Notes: generated by a model from the letters alone, not told the origin. Shown: positions 787 through 61,340, numbered from the stretch's first letter. The stretch: 64,000 bases of DNA from Octopus vulgaris (GCA_951406725.2 OX597832.1:68510001-68574000); one strand, 5' to 3'. A program made the numbers and translations.

Positions 787-897
787 AAGTTCCTGGATTT
801 TCCTGAAGAGAAAGCTGCATAATGGACTTCTTATTCATTCAGAATTAGGGATTTTGCAGACTTCGAAACATATGTCGAAAATAAAATAAAGGAATTT
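787..897 (+). ncRNA. Minimal type I hammerhead ribozyme, intact core
   Basis: Stem I ATTTTC(797-802)/GAAAAT(877-882), extended by AAGTTCC/GGAATTT; CTGAAGA 803-809; stem II GAAAGCTGCA/TGCAGACTTC; GAAA 865-868; palindromic stem III ACATATGT; cleavage triplet GTC 874-876. Confidence 0.85.
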
Positions 898-2299
898 TGT
901 TAAATCTTCGCTCAGCTCCATTCTTTCCTATACTTATTATATTAAATTAAACTTCAAATTTCTGCACTAAGGCATGGAGTATATGCCCTATGGTCGTAAA
1001 TTCAACCATGTTCTTTCTGTTGTGAGTTTGCTACCCAGGTATCGGTTATCTTACGAATTATCCGTAATAAGATAATTCATTTATCTACTCATATATATAG
1101 ATATATATATATGCTTACACACACTCATATGTTACTGTTAGTGAGGAAAATTGATATTTTAGAGTTGGTTCTTGAAAAGTGAATTAAAATCAAAAATATA
1201 AGTTAATACTGAAATGTATTAACCCTGCTCATGCACACACACACACACACACACACATATGCAAAATAATATGCAAAAACATGAGGATGAGAATATCAAT
1301 TCCCCAACACTTGTGAGGTTTTTTCTCTTAACAATTTTTTTATTTCTATCTCTGGTCTTGAATTTTAAAAATCTTGAAACTAGGAACATTTTTATCTTTC
1401 TTTATTAAATAAAGTCAGGGTAAAATTTTATTTGAAATAGGAAAAAAAAAACCGTGTATCTTTAAAAAAATATGTATATAAAATGAAAATTGGAATTACT
1501 TATCAAATTTAAAGGTAAATATTTCACATAAGGAATTTTTTTACAGACAGAAATGCAATTTGATTTAAGAAAAACTAAAAAAATAGAATTTATTCAATAT
1601 CCTTCACTCAACCCAAATTTGGATCTAGGTTTTATCAATTTGAAGTTTCAAACTGAGTGAAAATATGGTGATGGTGTGTGTTGTGGTGGTGGTGGTGGTG
1701 GTAGCAGCGGCTGCGGTGATGAGGGTTCATATGATGTGGTGGGCGTGGGTGAGAAATCTTAAATGAAATCATGTCCTGTTCTCCGTTGGAGTGCAGTTCA
1801 ATATGCATGATCTACATGTGTATGAGTGCTATTACAAATATACATGTGTGTGTTTATATTTGTGTGTGTCTGTGTACACACATATATATACACACATAGA
1901 CTGTGTACACACATAGACTTCATAGCTAGATATATGTAAATATATATATATATATATATATATATCCTTATACATAGACTTGAAAATAAAATTTTAATTT
2001 TCAGTGAGGTCTATAATGCACATATTATCGATGTCACATGCTTAACGCATCAAATACTTGTTGGCTGCAGTATTTCATCCAGGGAATGTCCCTTTAAAGA
2101 TGTAACGTGTTGGAAAATTCAACATCTTTAAAGAGATCTCCCCAGGATAAATGTCTGCTTCCAGCATGCATTTAATAACTTCCATACATGAGGTATGTAA
2201 CACTGAAAATATACTTAAACATATAATACAAGTATGTATGTATCTGTCTGTCTGTCTGTCTACATATATGTGTGTGTGTGTGTATGTGTGTGTGTGTAT

Positions 2300-3000
2300 G
2301 TTCCTTTCCACTATAGGCACAAAACTTGAAGTTTTGGAGGAGGTGGGGGCTAATAGATCACACGAACTATAGCACATGATTGCTATCCATTTTATTGATC
2401 TCAACCAGATGAAAGGCAAAGTCAGCTCCAGTGGAATTTGAATTCATAACATAAAGACAGACGAAATGGTGCTCAGCATTTTGCCTGGTGCACGGACAAT
2501 TCCACCACTTTGCTGCCAAAATAATAATCCTTTTATTATGGCATAAGGCCTAAAACTTTTGGTAGGGGACTAGTTGATTGCCTTGGACCCAGTTCTCAAC
2601 AGGTCTTTAATTTATTGAGCCTGGAAAGATGGAAGTCAAAATCAACCTCAGCAGTATTTGATCACAGAAAGTAAAGTTGGATGCTTCTAATCATTTCACT
2701 TGGATGATGATTGTGCCGGCTCACTATCTTCTTAATAATAATATTAATAATAAAAAATATTAATAATAATAATAATAATAATAATAATAATAATAATAAT
2801 AATAATGATAAATCTTTCTACTAAAGGCAGAAGGCCTGAAATTTTGGCGGAGGGACCTAGTAAATGACATCGGCCCCAGTGTTTCACTGGTAATTTATTG
2901 ATTTCAAAAGGATGAACGGCAAAGTTGACCTCAGCAGAATTTGAACCCAAAACATGAAGAGGGATGAAATACCACTAAACATTTAGCCAGTTTGCCTCCT
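2300..3000 (-). mobile_element. Three tandem copies of a tRNA-derived SINE (family A)
   Basis: Repeats at about 2300, 2521 and 2805 share cctttctactatagg...gatgaaaggcaaagtcgacctc...gaatttgaac (B-box-like GTTCAAATTC on the minus strand) and an (ATT)n tail. Confidence 0.8.
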
Positions 3001-3268
3001 TATCATCATCATCATCATCATCATCATCATCATCATCATCATCATTATTATTATTATAATCATCATCATCATTATTATTATAATCATCATCATCTTTAAG
3101 ATTGTTATTCTTATAATCACCTTCATCATTATTATTATTATTATTATTATTATTATTATTATTATTATTATTATTATAATCATCATCATCATCATCATCA
3201 TCATTATTATTATTATTATTATTATTATTATTATTATCATTATCATTATTATTATTATTATTATTATT

Positions 3269-3818
3269 GAGTGAGAGAACAATGCATGCTATCAAAGAGA
3301 CACTGGGGTAAAATATACGAAGCCCAGTATACCCATCATGACTAACCGTCATAAGGGTACACCAGGCACATGCATCACAACCATATGTGCACGACATGGT
3401 GATCTCATATCAAGATAAACAGCACATGACCTTGTAGGTGGGGCCAAGTTAGAATTTTCTTCTGGTCAAGTAACACATCCTGCTCAAAAGGTCCCTGAAT
3501 AAGGATTGTTCAAGGATGTTGAATGAAACACCCATGTTTCCAGTGGTGAATTATTTAAACCCCCAAACAATCCCTCTCAACACACGGCTAAGATGCTCCC
3601 CCACTACTTCTGCTTGTGATCAAAGATGCACATATCGTCAGCCACTAAGGGACATGCTCAACTGGTTAAGGTCAAACAACTGACAAGCAAATCTGTGGTA
3701 TTGAGCAGAATATTTGCTGTAGCCCATCTTTTATACTAAGACAAAACAATGTATGTGATAACACTTCCAATCAGTTAAGATCAGGAGCCATGAGAGCCAC
3801 TGCCTGGTATTGCATCAG
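3269..3818 (-). mobile_element. ~550-bp non-autonomous (TAA)n-embedded element, copy 1
   Basis: Reverse complement of 22201-22882 and 34499-35050; (ATT)n on both sides. Confidence 0.9.
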
Positions 3819-4029
3819 TATCATTATTATTATTATTAACATTATTATTATTATTATTATTATTATTATTATTATTATTATTATTATTATAATCATCATC
3901 ATCAACATCATCATCATTATTATTATTATTATTATTCATCTATTATTATTATTAATAATAATAATAATAATAATAATAATAATAATAATAATAATAATAA
4001 TAATAATAATGACAATAAGAAGAAGAACA

Positions 4030-58914: not shown

Positions 58915-59330
58915 TTACTCTTTTACTCTTTTACTTGTTTCAGTCATTTGACTGCGGCCATGCTGGAGCACCGCCTTTTAATCGAGCAACTTGACCCCGG
59001 GACTTATTCTTTTGTAAGCCCAGTACTTATTCTATCGGTCTCTTTTGCCGAACCGCTAAGTGACGGGGGACGTAAACACACCAGCATCGGTTGTCAAGCA
59101 ATGCTAGAGGGACAAACACAGACACACAAACATATACACACACATACATATATATACATATATACGACAGGCTTCTTTCAGTTTCCGTCTACCAAATCCA
59201 CTCACAAGGCATTGGTTGGCCCGGGGCTATAGCAGAAGACACTTGCCCAAGATGCCGCGCAGTGGGACTGAACCTGGAACCATGTGGCTGGTTAGCAAGC
59301 TACTTACCACACAGCCACTCCTACGCCTAT
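58915..59330 (-). mobile_element. Well-preserved family B tRNA/CORE-type SINE
   Basis: Minus strand: ggcgtaggagtggctgtgtggtaag..ggttcagtccc..cttgggcaagtgtc; (AAGAGTA)-like tail. Confidence 0.88.
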
Positions 59331-59417
59331 TGGTAATATAATTCAAAATTTTGTTTTGCATAAATTCAATTATTTACACATTATGCTTTCAAACAAGCCT
59401 TCATGAAGCAGGCTTAA

Positions 59418-59637
59418 CCCCCTCATTATTGTATTTATTTTGAGATGCTCTGCATTTCTTTCAATTATTTTAAATATAACAAAGAATTTAATAAAATAAC
59501 TTAGTTATCATTAAGCTAGTGTTAGGAACATAAATTGTGACTAAGGTTTGGTGGAAGATTTTAATTCAAAACTTATGAAAACAAAACATTTGTACTCAGA
59601 GCTAGAGCCGGTTTCAGCCAGATTTGTAACAAAAGGG
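59418..59637. mobile_element. piggyBac-type MITE
   Basis: TTAA|CCC ... GGG|TTAA (TTAA at 59414-59417 and 59638-59641); TIRs degenerate. Confidence 0.65.
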
Positions 59638-60419
59638 TTAAACATTATGTATTTGTGTGTGTGTGTGTGTGTGTATGTGTGTGTGTGTATGTGTGTGTGT
59701 CTAAATCCCTCATGTTTTCTGACCAAAGATTTATACAGAGTATTCTCTAATCATTATTCCCATAATCTTACTAGAACTGCCGTAGTACTGAAATATCATA
59801 CAATGAACATATTATTCAACCTTTTTTTTCACCCACAACTACATCGTGATGAACCAATGACATCCTCAGATGCTTAACTTTGGAGTCAAAACTTCTCAGT
59901 ATTTTATATACGAAATGTAGAATATTCTTCACCAATATTCAGATTCTAAAGTTTGTTAGCTTTCAACACTCAACTCTACTTTGGCACACTTAGCAGACTT
60001 GATGGTTGAAAATGTTAAACAAACAACCCCTCTTTTTGTATATCAGGATTATATTTTTTTCAAAAAGCCCTGGTTTTATAAAATTTTTAGAGTGTGGTTT
60101 TCAAGAGATTTGTTTCCTGTAATAATAATTGCCCAGACAAATACTTTCTTGGATGTTTGCATATTCAAATGAGCGAACTAAAGCAACGTTTAATTATGCA
60201 AACAGCTGCAACAAGGGAGAAAGAAAAATACTCCCAAACAACTTTGCAATCAACTTTTCCTTGTAATTAATTGGTTGTTAATTTATTTCACCTTTTTTCT
60301 GTGTCACATTGTAATACTTATATTACATTGTAACCCTTAGTTTGTAATCATGCAGATAACATACCTTTTATGGAAATGATCAGGACCTTTAAGCAGTCAC
60401 CACAGGTCATTGCTGAATA

Positions 60420-61340
60420 TACTTTTTTATTCTTTTACTTGTTTCAGTCATTTTGATGGAGGCCATGCTAGAGCACTGCCTTGAAGTGTTTTAGTTGAAA
60501 AAATCAACCCGAGGACTTATTATTTCTTTTAAGCCTGGTACTTATTGTATCGGTCTCCTTTTCTGAACCATTAAGTTATGGGGATGTAAACACACAAACA
60601 CTGGTTGTCAAGTGTTTGACGATGTCAGGGTGACAAACATAGACACAAATACATATATATATATGTATAAAGAATATGAGGAGTTTAGTTCACTGGTGAT
60701 CTAAACAAATAGGTACATTGTGTAAGTGCTATAATTGATCATCTGTTATGTTCCAAGTTCACAGCTGAGGTTGGAGCTAGGGATCAATATTAGGCTTCCA
60801 TATTAGCAGGTAAATATTAGAGGAAAAAGGACAACAAAATGACCTATACCCTCTGGAAAAAGATGATCTGTGAACTTTATTCTTCTGTCTATGATTTTAC
60901 TCGTTTATAAACAGTGAATTCTCTGTCTGGAATTTTCCTACATACTCACCTTGTCTCTGATGCCAGAATACACAGTGTATGGACATGCAAACCTATCACT
61001 TGGGATATTCCAGAAACAGCTGTAAGACATCCAATAATTATTTAATTGATTAATTAATTGGTTAATTAATTAATTAGTTAACTACCTCAAATTCACTTTA
61101 CACTAATTAAATATTCTAAATGACTCGAGATACGTGTCTTGGCTTTTGTTGTCCTTTTCCCTCTAATATATAAATATATGACGGGCTTCTTTCAGTTTCC
61201 ATCAACCAAATCCACTCACAAGGGTTTAGTAGGCATGAGGCTATAGTAGAAGACACTTGACCAAGGTGCCATGGAGTGGGACTGACTCCAGAACCATGTG
61301 GTTGGAAATCAAGCTTCTTACCACACAGCCACGCCTGTGA
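60420..61340 (-). mobile_element. Family B SINE split at its internal (TA)n by a ~510-bp hammerhead element (about 60665-61175)
   Basis: Halves 60420-60665 and 61176-61340 are collinear with 58915-59330; the insert has IR arms 60814-60839 and 61144-61169. Confidence 0.8.
60952..61029 (+). ncRNA. Minimal type I hammerhead (CUGAUGC variant, CpG-decayed stem II)
   Basis: TGTCT-CTGATGC-CAGAATA...TATTCCA-GAAA(61013-61016)-CAGCTG-TA-AGACA; palindromic ACAGCTGT. Confidence 0.7.

Follow-up and report, generated by a model that had tools for sequence, protein, structure and literature searches.

Eight minimal hammerhead ribozyme motifs in separate, probably Penelope-like repeat families within a 64-kb window of the Octopus vulgaris genome

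The stretch of DNA analyzed here, called the window throughout, comprises 64,000 nucleotides of the Octopus vulgaris genome (GCA_951406725.2, OX597832.1:68510001-68574000); it lies within contig C19 of the 2.8-Gb assembly of 227 contigs that was searched, has a GC content of 34%, and is rich in (TA)n and other simple repeats. A first-pass annotation had described it as harboring eight minimal hammerhead ribozymes in unrelated mini-elements that lack an open reading frame (ORF) and are embedded in (TA)n, and had pointed to Penelope-like elements (PLEs) and retrozymes as known carriers of such motifs. All eight motifs were found at the proposed coordinates and on the proposed strands with a type I hammerhead layout, and the predicted cuts at 876/877 and 8979/8980 match the positions 877 and 8980 given there for RNA 5′ ends. 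They are real hammerhead ribozyme sequences, and the proposal that they belong to eight separate repeat families (numbered 1 to 8 here, in the order of the motifs) was supported. The first-pass annotation had overlooked a ninth relic, a decayed one that belongs to family 6. The copies in the window are as follows.

594-1089, + strand: family 1, 5′-truncated 3′ end of a putative Hydra-like PLE; hammerhead at 797-882 with intact core, predicted cut 876/877, stem III ACAUAUGU.
8708-9172, + strand: family 2, ORF-less 427-bp unit, 1.09 units; hammerhead at 8917-8982 with intact core, predicted cut 8979/8980, stem III ACCGGU.
11680-11866, − strand: family 6, the ninth, decayed relic; 79% identity to family 6 across the core.
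13723-14031, − strand: family 3, old stub; hammerhead at 13865-13924, G8A in the window copy; family palindrome AUCAUAUGAU.
42587-42746, − strand: family 4, stub of a putative Hydra-like PLE; hammerhead at 42687-42742, 1-nt insertion in stem III.
42750-42938, − strand: family 5, inverted 5′-truncated copy with a 3′ tail extension.
42940-43205, + strand: family 5, main copy, from a 539-bp unit without an ORF; hammerhead at 42959-43034, U4G and A14U, stem III ACUAAUUAGU.
43255-43396, + strand: family 6, stub; hammerhead at 43278-43365, A15.1G in the window copy.
48005-48175, − strand: family 7, stub of a putative Neptune-like PLE; hammerhead at 48093-48131; family core CUG-(U/C/G)-N-GA, without A6; G16.2A in the window copy.
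60875-61180, + strand: family 8, old stub with an approximate 3′ limit; hammerhead at 60952-61029, A9C in the window copy, stem III ACAGCUGU.

A descriptor tolerating no mismatch recovered motifs 1, 2, and 4 from the window (3/8) and gave no match in any of 12 local dinucleotide shuffles. Allowing one core mismatch added motifs 3 and 6 (four matches, namely motifs 1, 3, 4, and 6; shuffle mean, 0.5). Motifs 5, 7, and 8 failed every descriptor setting used on the window, being too decayed or unusual, and were accepted as real because other copies of their families carry the hammerhead core. In an Rfam scan of the window, none of the 150 top-ranking matches out of 368 was a hammerhead, the list being flooded by (TA)n matches to microRNA models. 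Searching the genome with motifs 1 to 8 gave 2771, 1470, 140, 1053, 2291, 1942, 1975, and 1132 first-look candidates, respectively, figures that are not copy numbers; 40 candidates per motif were scored, and 129 loci, the 8 window copies included, were fetched (individual loci are designated by L numbers). No cross-family BLAST match was obtained at an E value of <0.01, so the families are unrelated at the DNA level, as had been claimed. The CUGANGA...GAAA...UH core with stems I and II was present at the family level in families 1 to 6 and 8. Letter-perfect family cores were found in other copies of family 1 (17/19), family 2 (18/19), family 3 (6/11), family 4 (8/14), family 5 (15/19), family 6 (13/14), and family 8 (6/14), as well as in 2/11 copies of family 7, where the sampled copies were BLAST neighbors of a decayed window copy. 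Only motifs 1 and 2 (2/8) have an intact core in the window itself, the others carrying the changes listed above (the insertion in motif 4 stands before C15.2); since other copies carry letter-perfect cores, these six are decayed copies from genuine hammerhead families.

Families 1, 2, 3, 5, 7, and 8 have a perfectly palindromic stem III, and the four palindromes named in the first-pass annotation were correct; stem III is self-complementary with a G-U pair in family 6 and palindromic at 8/9 positions in family 4. U15.2-A16.2 replaces C-G in 11/12 copies of family 3, a compensatory change in a family that was found by homology. Stem III forms no hairpin alone, and pairing between two copies was predicted at −1.7 to −11.1 kcal/mol (duplex energies, seven families); the palindromes and the predicted two-copy pairing are consistent with minimal hammerheads of the dimer type, as had been suggested. 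The stems keep their pairing, with 4 to 6 pair types per stem I column among 18 representatives of different families, although these were picked by descriptor and pairing is in part built into the count. The 10.1-11.1 pair is G-C in families 1 and 7, A-U in families 2 and 4, and G-U in family 6 and is mismatched in families 5 and 8; family 7 has a bulge between positions 9 and 10.1.

Fixed 3′ ends close to (TA)n were common to these families. (TA)3 lay within 15 nt of the fixed 3′ end in 86/122 copies, compared with 493/8000 random positions (6.2%), 7/129 loci without the anchor motif having been left out of the count. The description of the elements as embedded in (TA)n therefore holds for their 3′ ends but not for the 5′ side, which is variable and which in the case of motif 1 adjoins a Tc1 relic. 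The predicted cut was 36 to 213 nt from the 3′ end across the eight window copies. The 5′ ends of family copies were ragged, an inverted partial copy was present within the same locus in 45/129 cases (in family 3, an inverted piece at about 14034-14155 of the window), and families 1, 2, and 5 had two alternative 3′ ends, as expected of a PLE tail. A fixed 3′ end, a ragged 5′ end, an inverted copy, and a tail are features listed for PLEs (PMC8557442), and the tail arises from internal initiation of reverse transcription (PMC11167929). The affinity of the motifs to PLEs was thus supported by these hallmarks of insertion.

Longer copies of families 1, 4, and 7 continue upstream into coding sequence for a reverse transcriptase (RT) and/or a GIY-YIG endonuclease, so the window copies of these families are 5′-truncated stubs of coding PLEs; no relic of a PLE protein was found within the window. 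Long family 1 copies have approximately 3 kb in common at 93 to 96%, with RT and GIY-YIG coding and, in L131, an open frame of 690 amino acids (aa) containing the motifs DKT, YRDD, YIG, CxLCxxE (CALC), and CxH (CLH). This protein had 287 relatives at an E value of ≤0.001 among 8000 scored candidates, PF26215 being assigned to many of them and the name GIY-YIG endonuclease to one. A GIY-YIG frame of family 4 with a CxCx5C linker stops ~200 nt 5′ of the hammerhead (L102/L134 and L094; last codons in L101); at the endonuclease end only CxH is present, and the frame covers the endonuclease only, RT not being reached. Judged by these motifs, families 1 and 4 would match the definition of the Hydra clade given in PMC8557442, family 1 minus one feature. 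Locus L352 of family 7 has the arrangement pLTR-ORF-pLTR (pLTR, pseudo-long terminal repeat), with an RVT_1 match (E = 1.7e-5) and a Cx4CxxC linker; its GIY-YIG domain, in which YIG is present, is frameshifted, and this broken copy has DKD at the place of DKG and lacks one histidine of CCHH. The parent of family 7 is accordingly predicted to be Neptune-like. A fixed 5′ end for this family was considered and rejected, as longer copies continue to the ORF.

A very young Hydra-type PLE was found at L344:2700-6522, L345, and L346, with an intact 727-aa frame and pLTRs that are 99.3 to 99.8% identical, each with one hammerhead, 3.36 kb apart. The L344 copy carries DKT, CxxC and CxH, a (TA)n insertion, the CxCx5C linker, and an N-terminal RWK motif, a region before which the copies of families 1 and 4 end. 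Many further 727-aa frames were among 150 scored matches of a PLE endonuclease protein search, which brought up chiefly one young family and did not yield a parent of families 2, 3, 5, 6, and 8. Two side observations were made at other loci and in L344: a PLE RT fragment downstream of a family 8 copy in L084 resembles, by eye, Hydra-1_Obim of the PMC8557442 supplement, and U3-A8 core variants, of a kind already published, were seen at L168:6470, L222:5696, and L344:6570 (− strand), one of them ~620 nt behind a GIY-YIG frame.

The claim that the motifs sit in ORF-less, non-autonomous mini-elements failed for families 1, 4, and 7 but stood for families 2 and 5, which are closed units without an ORF. 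Family 2 showed a period of 425 to 430 bp in 7/20 loci and family 5 one of 538 to 539 bp in 2/20 loci (partial repeats); the units, 427 and 539 bp long, respectively, have no ORF and one type I hammerhead each. Both close head to tail, the tail of one unit entering the upstream part of the next, and in the window copy of family 2 positions 8708-8752 repeat 9136-9180. Families 2 and 5 are true non-autonomous units. Thirty family 2 copies, picked by their 3′ part only, were 0.47 to 1.34 units long, and a second hammerhead on the same strand, as in a tandem array, was found in none of them (0/30). Family 2 is covered by assembled contigs (of guessed type), from which RNA ends and strand cannot be read.

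We consider it highly probable (roughly 0.9) that the eight motifs are minimal type I hammerheads near the 3′ ends of eight families, of which three are the ends of coding PLEs, two are short units likely to be copied by PLEs, and three are likely of the same kind. From published PLE biology, an element would be transcribed through partial-tandem pLTRs, which would bring two hammerheads together; by analogy with described cases (PMC4209133, PMC6765202), these may pair through their palindromic stem III and cut slowly after H17. The RT/GIY-YIG protein would nick (TA)n DNA, and reverse transcription would start at internal sites just downstream of the ribozyme, giving the fixed 3′ end and the tail, with early stops of copying leaving stubs of 140 to 500 bp. 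Because the ribozyme is only 36 to 213 nt from the 3′ end, nearly every stub would retain it, hence the swarm. The window copies themselves are likely inert, since each is a lone stub without a partner in cis and 6/8 are mutated.

Several observations weigh against this account. The family 1 frame lacks the CxCx5C linker of Hydra and has an Asn-rich stretch in its place, for which reason the family is named Hydra-like only; the RVT_1 match of L352 falls under the curated cutoff; the family 1, family 4, and L344 proteins had no match in a local copy of Pfam, and a PDB sequence search with the Hydra-like proteins found nothing. The clade assignments follow motifs described in PMC8557442 and are not phylogenetic. 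Neither a coding partner nor closure of a unit was found for families 3, 6, and 8 in 12, 15, and 15 loci, respectively. The base of stem II is mismatched in most copies of families 5 and 8, and the monomer folds are ordinary (z = +0.34 to −2.79, with only 2/8 below −2). Finally, all 30 family 2 copies run upstream beyond the predicted cut site and none starts there (0/30); the RNA that was copied was therefore uncut at this site or rejoined.

The density of such motifs in the genome was estimated from 80 random 10-kb stretches (800 kb). The strict descriptor had 15 matches in this sample, one of which was judged to be due to chance, versus 0, 1, 0, 0, and 0 in five shuffles. Homology to a library of descriptor matches yielded 82 core-spanning relics, or 71 after removal of an 11-member chance family consisting of relatives of the repeat at 54360 (− strand) of the window, where a descriptor match had been rejected as a hammerhead, being a chance match inside an unrelated repeat. 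Five copies of an abundant repeat that yields chance descriptor matches lie in the window at 3432-3703, 19869-20092, 22447-22717, 34614-34886, and 54163-54421. Extrapolation gave ~49,000 strict motifs (95% range, 27,000 to 82,000) and, from the 71 relics in 800 kb, ~250,000 relics for the genome. This corresponds to ~1 relic per 11 kb of random genome, in support of the large population proposed by the first-pass annotation. The window, with 9 relics versus 5.7 expected (P = 0.12), is typical, since nine relics are within the expectation from the random sample. The fetched loci (~1.9 Mb) contained 226 descriptor matches, which fell into 43 clusters; the genome thus holds dozens of hammerhead-bearing families, some singleton clusters being probably chance.

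Family 7 was the commonest family, with 15 of the 71 relics in the random sample, and its core lacks A6. When positions 6 and 7 were allowed to vary, a 35-letter pattern had 8,231 exact matches in the genome and 0 in the control; among the first 100 of the 8,231 listed (counted by hand), position 6 was U in 96, C in 3, G in 1, and A in 0, and position 7 was A in 30, C in 29, G in 7, and U in 34. Fourteen random copies were retrieved through their 3′ flank only; they have U at position 6 in 9 cases, C in 3, G in 2, and A in 0, while the remaining core positions were kept in 11 to 14 of the 14, with N7 free. Pairwise identity among these 14 copies was 0.82 in the motif versus 0.59 and 0.70 in the 5′ and 3′ flanks. 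A6 is present in a close sister family that shares this stem II; covariation across family 7 and the sister was weak, 1/10 pairs having changed on both sides. U6 was predicted to zip the core strands into an inactive rod, a prediction that was set aside as nondiscriminating because the monomer of the A6-bearing sister mis-folds too. Situated 62 to 78 nt upstream of the hammerhead (L255-L281), 14/30 copies have GCC-ATG and a four-codon frame (mostly M-I/L-D/N-R-stop) with changes at third positions, followed by a pyrimidine tract leading into stem I; this stretch could be a small upstream ORF or the end of an intron.

Three other explanations were weighed. An origin of the motifs by chance, in DNA rich in AT and in repeats, draws on the fact that loose descriptors do match by chance, as at 54360, and that 3/8 motifs pass no descriptor setting in the window, but it does not account for 15 strict matches in random genome versus 0 to 1 in shuffles, for cores restored in other family copies, for a stem III that is palindromic in 6/8 families and nearly so in the other 2, or for the same position near the 3′ end in 8/8 families; the shuffle contrast and the family cores already refute it, and its probability is negligible. 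The view of the first-pass annotation, that all eight are dedicated, retrozyme-like non-autonomous elements spreading via small circular RNAs, has in its favor the closure of families 2 and 5 into ORF-less units of 427 and 539 bp and family 2 copies that reach up to 1.34 units. The finding that 0/30 of these copies span a full unit upstream of the cut (P ~ 0.05, exponential truncation) is a weak hint of a 5′ end made by the ribozyme. It is nevertheless refuted for 3/8 families, as families 1, 4, and 7 continue into RT/endonuclease frames, and published non-LTR retrozymes are tandem arrays of canonical hammerheads (PMC7229834), whereas no array of two hammerheads on the same strand was seen in 30 family 2 copies; as an account of all eight families we regard it as very improbable.

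In the third explanation, the motif persists because a PLE protein or a host factor recognizes its RNA structure, self-cleavage being weak or dispensable; the clearest case would be family 7, the most abundant family, which never has A6 and yet conserves the motif above its flanks. A natural A6C hammerhead is slow, cutting at <0.1 per minute (PMC3088659), minimal PLE hammerheads are described as poor cutters in vitro (PMC4209133), and Naiads proliferate without canonical hammerheads (PMC8557442). The other core positions, including G8, G12, and U16.1-H17, are retained with N7 free, however, as expected of a catalytic core, and a slow rate may suffice in a dimer or with help from a protein; we hold the explanation to be rather unlikely, though it is the chief competing account of function. 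For family 7 itself we tentatively propose, at somewhat less than even odds, that the most successful hammerhead PLE family (~50,000 relics) spread with an A6-free core of which selection kept the other bases, N7 being free, and that this core either cuts as a dimer or serves without cutting. Literature searches, one of them covering the first 20 of 333 matches by title, showed no A6U hammerhead, and neither did the Hydra and Chlamys hammerhead table of PMC8557442; such a variant may be described in Lunse et al. 2017, which deals with PLE hammerhead variants, in Arkhipova et al. 2017, or in supplements to PMC4209133.

Other features adjoin or lie between the hammerhead copies. A broken Tc1/mariner transposase gene occupies positions 1-594 (− strand), runs on upstream in L001, and has its 5′ end cut by family 1; L143 holds a related frame of 359 aa that is intact (HTH_Tnp_Tc3_2, DDE_3). 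A location of the motif 1 hammerhead inside the Tc1 transposon was rejected, as the shared element stops at 594 and the Tc1 relic is a mere flank. Motif 5 was likewise considered as part of a miniature inverted-repeat transposable element with terminal inverted repeats, which was rejected given that, as in PLEs, the tail sits on the inverted arm and the length of this arm varies. An intron-less 729-aa frame, preceded by an overlapping 313-aa frame, lies near a family 1 copy at L130:885-3071 (+ strand). The 3′ halves of non-LTR retrotransposon ORFs (RVT_1, zf-RVT), which we take to be R4/Dong-like, stand behind (AAT)n runs at 20190-21749, 34943-36310, and 31460-31780 (all + strand), and an exact 128-bp tandem duplication, with 2 copies at 97%, is found at 22216-22471.

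Minimal PLE hammerheads, of which most are single motifs left by truncated copies and which fall into many families per genome, were published in 2014 (Cervera and De la Pena 2014, PMC4209133), and Penelope is an abundant repeat of cephalopods (PMC8967140). Hydra-1_Obim of Octopus bimaculoides, with a (TA)n insertion and a hammerhead, is in supplements S1 and S2 of PMC8557442 (2021), and a 2026 preprint (Li et al., bioRxiv 10.64898/2026.07.22.740005) derives animal retrozymes from the pLTRs of PLEs. The swarm in the window is of this already published kind; its families look like further ones because, by eye, no window hammerhead equals that of Hydra-1_Obim. They share with the PLE motifs of PMC4209133 the type I layout, a short stem I, a tiny palindromic stem III, an optional 9/10.1 bulge, U3-A8 variants, inverted pairs 100 to 700 bp apart, and heterogeneity among many families of mostly lone truncated motifs. 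They differ in the long stem II extensions (40 to 60 nt) of several families, in the A6-less core of family 7, of which no mention was found in PMC4209133, and in number, ~49,000 strict motifs exceeding the 2,000 to 9,000 quoted there with a different descriptor.

The clade-level resemblances are to the Hydra and Neptune PLEs (Craig et al. 2021, PMC8557442). Endonuclease-bearing PLEs of the Hydra clade are similar in DKT, in CxxC and CxH at a C-terminal endonuclease, in (TA)n insertion, in a hammerhead with palindromic stem III near the 3′ end, and, for family 4 and L344, in the CxCx5C linker, the Asn-rich stretch of family 1 setting that family apart. Neptune PLEs resemble the parent of family 7 in the Cx4CxxC linker before a C-terminal GIY-YIG domain, the pLTR-ORF-pLTR arrangement, and insertion at microsatellites, but the family 7 hammerhead is without A6 and the parental copies inspected are broken. 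Families 2 and 5 are like non-LTR retrozymes (Cervera and De la Pena 2020, PMC7229834) in being ORF-less, a few hundred bases long, and equipped with one type I hammerhead; unlike these, their hammerheads are minimal, their copies are <1.4 units long with PLE-type tails and inversions, and no multi-hammerhead array was seen. The A6C hammerhead of phage Bcep176 (Perreault et al. 2011, PMC3088659) is also a natural change at core position 6, although it is a single phage sequence with C and low activity, whereas family 7 has thousands of genomic copies, mostly with U.

The swarm is ordinary for PLE-rich animal genomes, here at high density, and its value lies in the material. A single genome contains a very young, intact autonomous PLE bearing two hammerheads, together with a large A6-less family and its A6-bearing sister, and the two ORF-less units of families 2 and 5 resemble an intermediate between pLTR and retrozyme. 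What hammerheads do in PLEs that have an endonuclease has been called unclear (PMC8557442). If the proposal for family 7 is true, dimer cutting without A6 would be an undescribed natural core, and a noncutting role would answer what PLE hammerheads do. The A6-bearing sister with the same stem II is the natural control for family 7, and the pair provides a natural test, for which two short RNAs would be enough, of whether PLEs need self-cutting RNA.

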